A DNA stretch of 37,889 bases from a virus: positions 1 to 37,889 of IMG/VR virus record IMGVR_UViG_3300045988_047443; one strand, 5' to 3'. Shown piece by piece: positions 23,236-25,831 of the stretch. Below the pieces are notes generated by a model. That model made no database searches and had not been told where the DNA came from. It saw nothing but the letters and a program-made list of their open reading frames with translations. Position 1 is the stretch's first letter, and each line of letters opens with the position of its first letter. Both the position numbers and the translations under genes were made by a program.

Positions 23236-25811
23236 TGAACTACACCTCCATATCCATATCTTGCTTGCATACGCAACATTCTAGCAATTTCATCCGGACT
23301 TTGAGCTTTATTGTAGAAGTTGATAGTCTGACCGTTGTTATTCGTTGTAACACTAGGCATGATTTGAGCCATATCTTTTGCTACTGCACGAATCCATGCT
23401 TTGTTTCTTTCTAACGGTACAACTGCTTCTGCTCCATTACCTTCCAACAAACCAATCTGTCCACGTTTCAATACACCACCACGCTCTAGTTTTGGAATCT
23501 TTCCAATGTTAACTCCAGGAATCTTATTGATGATACTGATAGCGCCGTTAATGCCACCGATAACACCATTCACCATTCCTTTTACACTAGAAACTAATGA
23601 ACCTACTGCTCCTTCAATTCCACTGAATACACCACTTACAAATCCCGTTAAACCACTCCACGCATTCTTTATTCCTTGTAGAACGTTTGAAATCTTATTT
23701 CCTACTTTATCCATCACTACTTTTACCTTTGACCACACATCATCAAATACATTTGAAATGGTATCTTTTACGCCTGTAAAGCTAGAATCAATTATATCAA
23801 TTACACTTTGTACAATATTTCCGATATTGTCGAATACACCTTTGATAACATTCCATATGCTTTCAAATACACTTGAAATCGACTGAAATAAACCACTTAC
23901 AAATTGAATGATTGCAGATACCACTTCACTTATCTTGCTCCAAACATTCGTTGCGATAGTTACGATTAAAGACCAAATATTAGATATGATAGATGCAATA
24001 ATTTGAACAATTGGCATGATAATAGACAATATTGTAGAAATTGCACTTCCAATATATGAAATTACCATACTAATGAACGAAATGATTCCACTTACAACAC
24101 TTCCAACTATCGAAAGAATAGATGTAATTACAGGAATTAATCCAACTATATTTGAAATCACCATTTTTATAATTGCTAGAATCGGTGGTCCTACTACTGT
24201 AAGAATCTTTTGTGCTTGATTCACAATGTTTTGAATAACTTCAATAATATTACTTAATATATCTTTTGCAATAGGTTCAAGTGCAACTTTCATTTCGTCA
24301 ATCGCTTTTCTGACCTCATCAAACGCAGGAGCTAACACTTCAGAAACTTGACTTGTCAATTTTGTAATTCCACTTGTATCAATCTTACTTAATACACTTG
24401 AAATTACATCACCAACTTTAGCAAATCCTTGTTGAATACCTTGAATTGCTACTATAATCAATCCAACGATACCGGCAAGAATAGGGGTAATAAGTTCGCC
24501 TATTGGAGTAAATGAATCAAGAAATGCACGTCCCAAACCACTTAAAGCGTTCTTTAAACCACCATTTGCAATTTCTTTAACCTTGTCCATTGCACCTTCT
24601 ACATCTTTATATTTATTCCCTACTGTTGTTAAGGACTGAATGAATCCGGCGTTGAAATCTTCTCCCATTGTACCGAAAGCCGTTGCCGTTTTATTCAACT
24701 TTTCTTGTTGATTTGTAGTTCTTGAAATATCTTCTACAATCGCATTCACAACATCTTTCTGAGTTTTTCTTCCTTCTTGCCATGCCTTGAATACATCTTG
24801 CGTCTTTGTATCGAAACTATCTAAAGCTCCTTCGATATTTCCATCAACTAACCTTGTGGTAACTTCATTGATTGCGTCGTTAACTTTATCAAGGTTATAA
24901 GCTCCACCATCTAAACCATTCTGCATTAATTGGAAATATTCATCTGCCGAATATCCTGCTTGTTTGAATTTACCTGCGTATTCTGAAATGTTATCGCCTA
25001 ATTCATCCGACTTATTCAAGCCATTCTGAGCACCTGTAGCCATAAGGTCAAACGCTTCTTTAGAAGTAATTCCGAACTGCTTCATTAATTGTTGAGCACC
25101 TCTAAGAGTTTCGTTCTCATCCATGTCGAAAGCGTCTCTTAAAGTTAATAAATCCTCAGTTACATCTTTTAAATCGGTATCACTTATGCCTTGCATTTGT
25201 TGCTTGACTCTGCCCATCATATCGGCAACATCTGAAATATCTTCACCAAAATTATTAGACCAAACATCACGAGCAATGTTTTTAAATTTGCTCATTTCGT
25301 TACTTGAAGCACCTGTTTGAGCTTGGAATTTCGCCATAGCGTCATCTAGTTCCATAGCTTGATTAACACCTGTCTTAATTGCTAATGCCATACCACCGAT
25401 AGCTCCTGCTACGGCAGTAACACCAACAACACCTCCAACGCCTAAGCCTGTTAATGTTTCTGTGATTGCAGTAGCTTCCGGACTAATGTTCTGAATCTTT
25501 CCTAATAGTCCATCAAATCCACCTTGAATTGACTCTAAGGCACTACTTCCTACTTGCTTAAATACATCAAACTTAGAACCTGTTTCTTGCGTTTCTGTTT
25601 GTGTATTCTTTTGCTCACTATTTAGCTTTCTTAATTCATCTGTAATCTTTGGCGGTGCTTTTGAACCGTCAGAACCTAACTTATCTATCGCATTTGAAGT
25701 ATCTTTAATAGCGTTTGTAGCTTTATTTGATACATCACTAACCGATTTAATACCATTTTCAAGACCACTTGTGTCTATCTTTGTATCAAACTTTAATGTT
25801 CCGTCTGATAT
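23232..25811 (-). CDS. Tape measure protein
   Basis: About 860 aa with coiled-coil and hydrophobic repeats. The frame is open for 140 codons upstream of the first ATG (25391) with no ATG/GTG/TTG. It begins ATA-SDGTLKFDTKIDTSG after AAAGGAGGTG. Confidence 0.8.
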   Translation of the reverse strand: MSDGTLKFDTKIDTSGLENGIKSVSDVSNKATNAIKDTSNAIDKLGSDGSKAPPKITDELRKLNSEQKNTQTETQETGSKFDVFKQVGSSALESIQGGFDGLLGKIQNISPEATAITETLTGLGVGGVVGVTAVAGAIGGMALAIKTGVNQAMELDDAMAKFQAQTGASSNEMSKFKNIARDVWSNNFGEDISDVADMMGRVKQQMQGISDTDLKDVTEDLLTLRDAFDMDENETLRGAQQLMKQFGITSKEAFDLMATGAQNGLNKSDELGDNISEYAGKFKQAGYSADEYFQLMQNGLDGGAYNLDKVNDAINEVTTRLVDGNIEGALDSFDTKTQDVFKAWQEGRKTQKDVVNAIVEDISRTTNQQEKLNKTATAFGTMGEDFNAGFIQSLTTVGNKYKDVEGAMDKVKEIANGGLKNALSGLGRAFLDSFTPIGELITPILAGIVGLIIVAIQGIQQGFAKVGDVISSVLSKIDTSGITKLTSQVSEVLAPAFDEVRKAIDEMKVALEPIAKDILSNIIEVIQNIVNQAQKILTVVGPPILAIIKMVISNIVGLIPVITSILSIVGSVVSGIISFISMVISYIGSAISTILSIIMPIVQIIASIISNIWSLIVTIATNVWSKISEVVSAIIQFVSGLFQSISSVFESIWNVIKGVFDNIGNIVQSVIDIIDSSFTGVKDTISNVFDDVWSKVKVVMDKVGNKISNVLQGIKNAWSGLTGFVSGVFSGIEGAVGSLVSSVKGMVNGVIGGINGAISIINKIPGVNIGKIPKLERGGVLKRGQIGLLEGNGAEAVVPLERNKAWIRAVAKDMAQIMPSVTTNNNGQTINFYNKAQSPDEIARMLRMQARYGYGGVVQ

Positions 25812-25831
25812 TCAATTTGCCACCTCCTTTT

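Follow-up and report, generated by a model that had tools for sequence, protein, structure and literature searches.

Predicted ATA start codons at the tape measure gene and twelve other genes of a human-gut siphophage that encodes an initiator-like tRNA with anticodon UAU

We analysed a stretch of viral DNA of 37,889 nt (IMG/VR record IMGVR_UViG_3300045988_047443; the whole stretch is called the window below), which belongs to a temperate siphophage of the human gut. Its tape measure protein (TMP) gene, which lies on the minus strand, appears to begin not with a canonical start codon but with ATA, placed behind a strong Shine-Dalgarno sequence (SD), and so do twelve further genes of the window. 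The phage also encodes a tRNA with the anticodon UAU, the exact complement of AUA, built on a body with marks of bacterial initiator tRNAs. Pervasive and conserved ATA initiation in a phage, as predicted by sequence comparison, is the secure part of these results; that the AUA starts are read by the phage's own initiator-type tRNA(UAU) is the explanation we favour, with a probability of about 0.6.

The gene at 23232-25811 is the tape measure gene by family homology and gene order. PHROG TMP families match its product from residue 7 on with E-values down to 1e-70, its relatives carry PF10145, and it is flanked by Gp15-like and SPP1_Dit genes, a position that fits a TMP. The features around its proposed start are as follows.

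23232..25811, minus strand: tape measure protein gene, from ATA to TAG at 23234-23232, 859 codons
25809..25811, minus strand: proposed TMP start ATA, invariant in about 64 relatives and lying under the Met of MADGSLKFDTKIDT homologues
25821..25830, minus strand: Shine-Dalgarno sequence AAAGGAGGTG, a 10-nt complement of the 16S rRNA 3' end
25812..25814, minus strand: in-frame TGA directly before the ATA, closing the TMP frame
25786..25815, minus strand: out-of-frame TTG mini open reading frame (mini-ORF) MNIRRNIKV*, overlapping the TMP start
25832..26395, minus strand: Gp15-like (tail chaperone-type) gene, 187 amino acids, ATG start, TAG stop at 25834-25832

Most of this layout had been read correctly in an earlier note made from the letters of the window alone: the stop of the upstream gene at 25834-25832 with AAAGGAGGTG at 25830-25821, the in-frame TGA at 25814-25812 followed by ATA at 25811-25809, and a frame that from this ATA holds 140 codons without ATG, GTG or TTG. 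The first canonical start codon in the frame is indeed the ATG at 25391-25389, codon 141, as the note had it. Since ATG, GTG and TTG together make up 4.3% of the phage codons, the chance of 140 codons without any of them is about 0.002; the comparative evidence, with the same layout in about 64 independent assemblies, is stronger than this figure. Behind AAAGGAGGTG come GCAAA and then TTGAATA, in which three triplets crowd or overlap, TTG at 25815-25813, TGA at 25814-25812 and ATA at 25811-25809. The note had described the TTG as out of frame and as opening a mini-ORF of nine codons, which holds (it reads TTG AAT ATC AGA CGG AAC ATT AAA GTT TGA, with the stop at 25788-25786), and had placed it at 25816, where the actual position is 25815-25813. 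The TGA lies directly before the ATA, and ribosomes must therefore enter the TMP frame at the ATA.

The start was compared in two sets of relatives, 39 distinct sequences from IMG/VR and elsewhere (35 IMG/VR contigs and 4 metagenome contigs) and 25 further metagenome contigs (24 from the human gut and 1 from NCBI), about 64 in all. ATTGAATA and the 17-nt spacing from the SD to codon 2 are unchanged in both sets, and neither an ATG in place of the ATA nor an indel occurs among the roughly 64 relatives; in AAAGGAGGTG a single base varies. While the ATA is constant in about 64/64, third positions vary in 99 of the 139 TMP codons from 2 to 140 (71%), and the variable sites in these codons are distributed 31/19/99 over codon positions 1, 2 and 3 among the 39 distinct sequences. 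The same signature, 1/1/5 by position in the TMP frame, is seen in the codons that overlap the mini-ORF (TMP codons 2-9). Read in the TMP frame, the changes behind R>G, R>W and I>S at mini-ORF codons 3-5 leave the residue unaltered or put a similar one in its place, and three contigs (L013, L145 and L148) have lost the mini-ORF stop. Because these changes are radical in the TTG frame, and because some relatives have lost the mini-ORF stop, the TMP frame is evidently read from codon 2 onward.

Distant TMPs point to the same codon. They begin with an SD, 4-9 nt and ATG GCA GAT GGA AGT CTN AAA TTT GAT ACN AAA ATH GAT, that is, MADGSLKFDTKIDT, and the window sequence ATA TCA GAC GGA ACA TTA AAG TTT GAT ACA AAG ATA GAC matches them codon for codon. 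The alignment with homologous TMPs that the earlier note had named as a check thus places the ATA under the initiator Met, at the head of a motif (DG-LKFDTKIDT) that is the best-conserved part of the distant TMPs. The DNA of the start region had no match in 50,697 phage records, and matches at the protein level cover the conserved TMP domain only. Invariance among relatives, the Met alignment in distant TMPs and the twelve further genes of this kind all support the start proposed in the note, at ATA behind AAAGGAGGTG, and we hold it very probable on these comparisons that ATA 25811 is the TMP start codon.

Two side observations concern TMP genes in databases. Some public TMP predictions start at an internal TTG or ATG, losing 126-140 residues. 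In a second, unrelated TMP lineage the start position is occupied by ATA, ATA, TTG, ATC and ATG in contigs L156-L160 (IMG/VR 3300042934_000280, 3300042923_000344, 3300042922_000091, 3300042923_001794 and 3300042934_000003, respectively), in all five behind a GAAAGGGGTGA motif.

We scanned the whole window for SDs of at least 6 contiguous complementary bases lying 5-11 nt before an ORF of at least 100 codons. ATG was found at such sites 13 times and ATA 12 times, with other codons appearing only as neighbours of these sites. After curation, ATA starts 13 genes in the window, TMP included. All thirteen have an A directly before the ATA (AATA), and their first canonical codon lies 2-140 codons downstream, without an SD. 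The twelve genes other than TMP are listed here.

36784..36786, minus strand: ATA of the portal gene (35383-36786, phrog_533), SD TTTAAGGAGGT + 6 nt; next canonical codon is codon 32; ATA in 21/21 relatives
33971..33973, minus strand: ATA of ORF 33365-33973, SD + 7 nt; ATA in 8 and ATG in 4 relatives
29802..29804, minus strand: ATA of the major head protein gene (28935-29804), AAGGAGG + 9 nt; next canonical codon is codon 18, without SD; ATA in 19/19 relatives
28052..28054, minus strand: ATA of the minor head/connector gene (27692-28054, phrog_556), GGGAGG + 10 nt; ATAG overlap with the upstream stop
27274..27276, minus strand: ATA of the major tail protein gene (26773-27276), SD AGAAAGGAG + 7 nt; TAATA overlap with the upstream stop
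23233..23235, minus strand: ATA of the Dit gene (22363-23235), GGAGGTG, with 9 nt from GGAGG to ATA; ATAG overlap with the TMP stop
21333..21335, minus strand: ATA of the holin gene (20829-21335, PF05105), AAGGAG + 7 nt; ATA in all relatives but one, which has ATG
18217..18219, minus strand: ATA of the endolysin gene (16777-18219), AAGGAGG + a T-run spacer with indels; ATA in 15/15 relatives
9560..9562, minus strand: ATA of the HNH/NUMOD4 gene (9005-9562), with the weakest SD of the set; next canonical codon is codon 38
8296..8298, minus strand: ATA of the HTH_36 replication-type gene (7558-8298), GGAGGTGATTAGA before the ATA; ATA in 5/5 relatives
4326..4328, minus strand: ATA of ORF 3741-4328, TGGAGGT + 6 nt, one codon after an in-frame stop; next canonical codon is codon 17; ATA in 3/3 relatives
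3722..3724, minus strand: probable ATA start of small ORF 3530-3724, GGAGGTG, with 8 nt from GGAGG to ATA; ATG two codons later

Profile alignments begin at the ATA in three of the genes. Positions 4-195 of phrog_24103 align on residues 4-200 of the ORF 33365-33973 product, and positions 3-294 of phrog_422 on residues 3-288 of the major head protein. In the HNH/NUMOD4 gene, where the ATA call comes from the window sequence alone, NUMOD4 positions 6-49 align on residues 1-39. For the major tail protein the next canonical codon is codon 17, again without an SD, and relatives have ATA 38 times and ATG once. The small ORF 3530-3724 keeps its ATA in 27/27 relatives despite a highly variable spacer, and a homologue of the HTH_36 gene in contig L329 has the same layout.

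At two genes with a canonical codon near the ATA, the canonical codon varies. In the minor head gene the context of ATA 28054 is invariant, while the ATG at 28046-28048 is ATG in 19, ATC in 6, ATA in 2 and ATT in 2 relatives; because of this variation it is probably an internal Met/Ile codon, with the start at the ATA two codons upstream. Similarly, in a 6-kb tail-region alignment of 29 genomes the Dit ATA is invariant in the 29 relatives, the TTG at 23229, named as the Dit start in ORF lists, is ATC, ATT, TTA or GTC in most of them, and the Dit-frame codons upstream of ATA 23235 change radically. Public gene calls begin Dit about 32 codons late, and many public endolysin predictions of the phage family, seen among P0140-P0150, have 451 amino acids, beginning 29 codons after the ATA and cutting an N-terminal peptidase-type region with the motif GAYGSQCWD.

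Start ATAs are thus either conserved among relatives or exchanged with ATG alone. Of 28 ATA codons inside genes, 21 vary, changing in most cases to ATT, ATC or GTA, and since these drift and the start ATAs do not, ATA seems to stand for Ile inside genes, with the start ATAs forming a distinct class of site. The neighbouring ATG starts at 27695, 26754 and 26395 are ATG in 29/29 relatives, which suggests that the start-codon identity of each gene is held by selection. The last of these belongs to the Gp15-like gene upstream of TMP (PF06854 Phage_Gp15 in relatives; phrog_706), which overlaps the gene before it (the two encode 187 and 120 amino acids) as ATGA at 26392-26395 on the minus strand, each gene having an ATG of its own. 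As controls, other phages with a TMP (120 kb) yielded ATG 50 times and ATA once (a false positive), and about 43 kb of host-like chromosome gave 21 SD-led ATGs and no SD-led ATA. These counts show pervasive SD-led ATA sites, our predicted starts, to be specific to the phage family, and the analysis as a whole shows thirteen genes, TMP and the twelve others, with predicted translation from ATA behind a strong SD.

The tRNA gene is placed as follows.

3105..3180, minus strand: tRNA gene, 76 nt, anticodon TAT at 3148-3146, CCA encoded, just after a terminator-like hairpin at 3204-3220

The Rfam tRNA model matches 3108-3180 (minus strand) at 48 bits. ARAGORN at default settings reported no tRNA in the window, and with a relaxed threshold it finds the one at 3105-3180, naming it tRNA-Ile(tat) by its anticodon alone. 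The sequence is AGCAGGA UA GAGC AGUAGUA GCUC A CUAGU CUUAUUA GCUAG AGGUC GAA(C)GG UGCAAUU CCUUC UCCUGCA ACCA. Bacterial initiator tRNAs, such as E. coli tRNAfMet, are marked by a 1:72 mismatch, the formylation determinants G2:C71, C3:G70 and A73, and A11:U24. The phage tRNA has an A1xA72 mismatch, which is found in all copies in the family, G2:C71, C3:G70, A73, a GCAACCA end and a GAGC/GCUC D stem (A11:U24). An elongator tRNA-Ile(UAU) would share the anticodon; the pairing at 1:72, the pyrimidine11:purine24 pair of the D stem and the purine at 37 that are the norm in elongators are all missing from the phage tRNA. Nor does the usual codon-supply reason for a phage tRNA apply, because internal ATA is no more frequent in the phage (12.5 per 1000 codons) than in host-like loci (13.1 and 9.9).

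The tRNA is maintained in the family, with a copy in 21 of the 22 near-complete contigs. In 23 distinct flanked sequences from 29 family contigs its body is nearly invariant and its flanks are variable; the bulge in the T stem survives a double change, GAACGG>GAAGAG. When 11 UAU tRNAs were aligned with two reference tRNAfMet (the E. coli reference sequence matches at 100% in every one of 5426 E. coli genomes), the cloverleaf was 95% paired with 11 covarying pairs, G2:C71, C3:G70, A73 and A11:U24 were invariant, and 1:72 was unpaired in 11 of the 13 sequences, both references included. Among annotated phage sequences, the tRNA-Met (CAU) of Mycobacterium phage Phabba, also with a 1:72 mismatch, comes closest.

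A pattern scan also turned up initiator-like UAU tRNAs in unrelated viral contigs (L339, L329, L287, L297, L262, L338, L263 and L253) with GC contents of 29%-66%. Some of these have the canonical C1xA72 (as in L339) and others C1xU72, and the L297 tRNA is nearly identical, except for the anticodon, to what we take to be the B. subtilis tRNAfMet sequence. L329 and L339, which share the CUUAUUA loop, have SD-led ATA starts of ORFs at one or two sites each, a weak signal. The link between a UAU tRNA and predicted ATA starts is demonstrated in the phage family of the window, and weakly in these two contigs. The pattern GCTC-N6-CTTATTA-N5-AGGTC was tried as a finder of such tRNAs and discarded, as outside the family it gave mostly chance matches.

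According to the mechanism we propose, TMP translation would start at ATA 25811-25809, directed by the strong, extended SD AAAGGAGGTG, and the AUA starts would be read in the ribosomal P site by the initiator-derived tRNA(UAU) of the phage, and not by near-cognate pairing of host fMet-tRNA alone. AUA would then be a fully working start codon only in the presence of the phage tRNA; without it, AUA could still work at a reduced level via the host initiator, as in S. aureus. The amino acid carried may be Met or Ile. Methionyl-tRNA synthetase depends on C34, B. subtilis isoleucyl-tRNA synthetase can charge a tRNA-Ile with a UAU anticodon, and proteins made with engineered initiators that carry an Ile, Val or Phe anticodon begin with the corresponding residue. 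We see a little better than an even chance that this is a natural phage-private start codon, in which an initiator-derived tRNA(UAU), possibly charged with Ile, makes AUA a cognate start for about one-fifth of the genes.

Several explanations dispense with an ATA start at TMP altogether. Ribosomes might start at TTG 25815 and reach the TMP frame by a shift in the first two codons (TTG AAT / A TCA). The earlier note had considered a -1 frameshift from the TTG mini-ORF, and this direction was mistaken, as passing from the TTG frame to the TMP frame needs +1. At 7 nt behind GGAGG the TTG has the modal spacing of the phage, and it is invariant in the roughly 64 relatives, as are the five bases before the ATA, while some 70% of third positions vary. 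However, the site lacks a slippery codon or one that could re-pair (a tRNA-Asn slipping from AAU to AUA would have two mispaired positions), no stop or rare A-site codon stands before the conserved S/A-D-G, which must already be in the TMP frame, the TTG-frame codons 3-5 undergo the radical changes described above, and no such TTG is found at the twelve other ATA-start genes or in the second TMP lineage; a shift of this kind is very unlikely. Still less probable is a start at GTG 25823 with TGA 25814 read as Trp, by genetic code 4 or by read-through, to give MANWISDG. Two database proteins (P0001 and P0006) do read MANWISDG, but they are code-4 gene calls on short contigs (L001, 175-1443, and L002, 626-1270) and cannot be translated under table 11. 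Moreover, GTG 25823 falls inside the SD and reads GTT in contigs L007 and L154, the codons from GTG to TGA vary like non-coding spacer (GCA>GAA, AAT>CAT/GAT), and TGA ends many window genes, 24 genes holding 82 in-frame TGG and no in-frame TGA. Finally, the first 140 codons could be a dead remnant, with the real start at ATG 25391, or the gene could be a pseudogene or an assembly error; gene finders do start related proteins at internal codons (P0002-P0005 and P0007). This we can practically dismiss, as the 140 codons stay open with the 31/19/99 pattern across 39 sequences, their DG-LKFDTKIDT motif is the best conserved in distant TMPs, and about 64 independent assemblies agree. A hairpin, UAUCAGAC/GUUUGAUA, at 25784-25810 (minus strand), extending from the second base of the TMP ATA (-6.8 kcal/mol, z -2.5), was also rejected as not conserved: it is broken in L013 and in GAT>GAG/GAA variants, some variants keep it via G.U pairs, and longer context around it folds no better than shuffles.

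The more serious competitor accepts ATA 25811 and the twelve others as starts and has them read by host fMet-tRNA(CAU), through near-cognate pairing and the strong SD, the phage tRNA being an elongator, an anti-defence decoy or non-functional. S. aureus infC, ccpN, citZ and cvfC1 have natural AUA or AUU starts with extended SDs, AUA giving about 10-30% of AUG in this Firmicute (PMC13009471), and in vitro AUA is efficient, equal to AUG, in an optimised initiation region (PMC5499595; see also bioRxiv 10.1101/063800). Host fMet-tRNA alone could explain AUA initiation, and other observations also tell against the proposed mechanism. The phage tRNA lacks three consecutive G:C pairs in the anticodon stem (A29:U41, G30:C40 and U31.G39 in the window; G29:C41, G30:C40 and U31.G39 in the L276 variant), for which reason we class it as initiator-derived and not as a canonical initiator; its anticodon is UAU and not the CAU of initiators; it has U37, a bulged base in the T stem and an atypical elbow, with the T loop UGCAAUU (G55) and no GG in the D loop; and ARAGORN at default rejects it. 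A UAU tRNA was not found in the available DNA of the second TMP lineage (L156-L160), despite its ATA and ATC starts, and there is no excess of ATA starts in the few-kb flanks of the UAU tRNAs in L253, L262, L263, L287, L297 and L338. The TMP spacing from GGAGG to ATA is 11 nt, beyond the 6-8 nt mode of the phage (though inside the range observed at the endolysin ATA), with the invariant TTG at 7 nt. In addition, the host-like sample without SD-led ATA starts is just about 43 kb, from relatives of the inferred host. Against reading by the host initiator, the abundant capsid and major tail proteins use ATA while adjacent low-copy chaperone-type genes have invariant ATG, the opposite of simple down-tuning. 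The host-like DNA has no SD-led ATA starts, internal ATA use is equal in phage and host, and the tRNA combines a 1:72 mismatch, A11:U24 and formylation determinants, which elongators do not have. We therefore consider the host initiator alone the less probable explanation, and prefer reading by the phage tRNA.

The five bases preceding the ATA never vary, which points to selection on the TTG (or the TGA) itself, and the out-of-frame TTG is probably a competing or decoy start. It is possible, speculatively, that the TTG, at the optimal 7 nt, competes for initiating ribosomes and so keeps TMP output low relative to the major tail protein, whose ATA stands at 7 nt without a competitor. This contrast in spacing would fit, again speculatively, the few TMP copies versus the hundreds of tail-tube subunits.

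We compared these predicted starts with known systems. Single AUA or AUU starts in bacteria and phage-encoded tRNAs, initiator copies included, are already known. In the literature searched, neither a tape measure gene starting at ATA, nor a phage with numerous starts of this kind, nor a UAU-anticodon initiator tRNA was described. The phage starts resemble the S. aureus AUA starts in marking the true N-terminus, in a strong SD extended 3' into GGAGGUG, in being conserved and in having been missed by annotation (PMC13009471). In contrast to S. aureus, where a handful of regulatory genes rely on the host initiator, the phage uses ATA in about 20% of its genes, including those of its most abundant structural proteins, and its genome encodes the matching UAU tRNA, while host-like DNA is without such starts. 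With bacterial tRNA(fMet) the phage tRNA shares the 1:72 mismatch, G2:C71, C3:G70, A73, the GCAACCA end and A11:U24, and with the Phabba tRNA-Met, which has A1xC72, the CUAGC/GCUAG anticodon stem; it differs in having UAU for CAU, one of the three G:C pairs, U37, G55 and the bulged T stem.

In recoded gut phages, phage suppressor tRNAs reassign stop codons in elongation. The similarity is that a phage tRNA would alter the reading of one codon, mainly in late structural and lysis genes, and that gene calling is misled; the difference is that a sense codon would be reassigned, and at initiation. Initiator tRNAs with altered anticodons, engineered in E. coli from about 1990, start at non-AUG codons, sometimes with residues other than Met. 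There, too, an initiator body with a changed anticodon redirects initiation to the complementary codon, but those are laboratory constructs, and the phage case would be natural and conserved, with the matching starts in the same genome. In mitochondria, AUA also encodes internal Met and is read by a single modified tRNA-Met. The phage is like mitochondria in using AUA as a regular start codon and unlike them in treating ATA inside genes as Ile and in having a separate tRNA; non-AUG starts of mammalian mitochondria are a subject of PMC11775629.

No close relative was found among GTDB species representatives, and the host was therefore inferred from a prophage flank. In three contigs (L210, at 13100-19425, L211 and L212) a relative of the phage is adjoined by chromosomal genes. 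For the rRNA methyltransferase of the flank the closest named homologues, at 74-79% identity, belong to Floccifex, Catenisphaera and Dubosiella, which are all Erysipelotrichaceae. The host is thus probably an uncultured member of the Erysipelotrichaceae of the human gut.

If the predicted starts are correct, the annotation error that follows is systematic and, with 1374 members in the 90% cluster of Gp15 alone, touches phages that are common in human-gut data. Gene finders of the Prodigal type would truncate or miss ATA-start genes, taking 126-140 residues from TMP, 29 from the endolysin and 16-17 from the capsid and major tail proteins, and on short contigs they can fall back on code 4 and produce a spurious MANW N-terminus.

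If the phage tRNA reads AUA as proposed, the phage would alter the genetic code at initiation with a tRNA of its own, in parallel to stop-codon recoding and as a natural counterpart of engineered orthogonal initiator tRNAs. Start-codon choice may then set the stoichiometry or timing of virion proteins, for instance through a decoy TTG at the low-copy TMP and an unopposed ATA at the major tail protein. Translation of late genes would depend on a phage tRNA, which could lock these genes in the lysogen or time their expression, and the ATA genes could stay translated when the host initiator tRNA is attacked. The UAU tRNAs of initiator type seen in viral contigs unrelated to it suggest that such a system may be more widespread.

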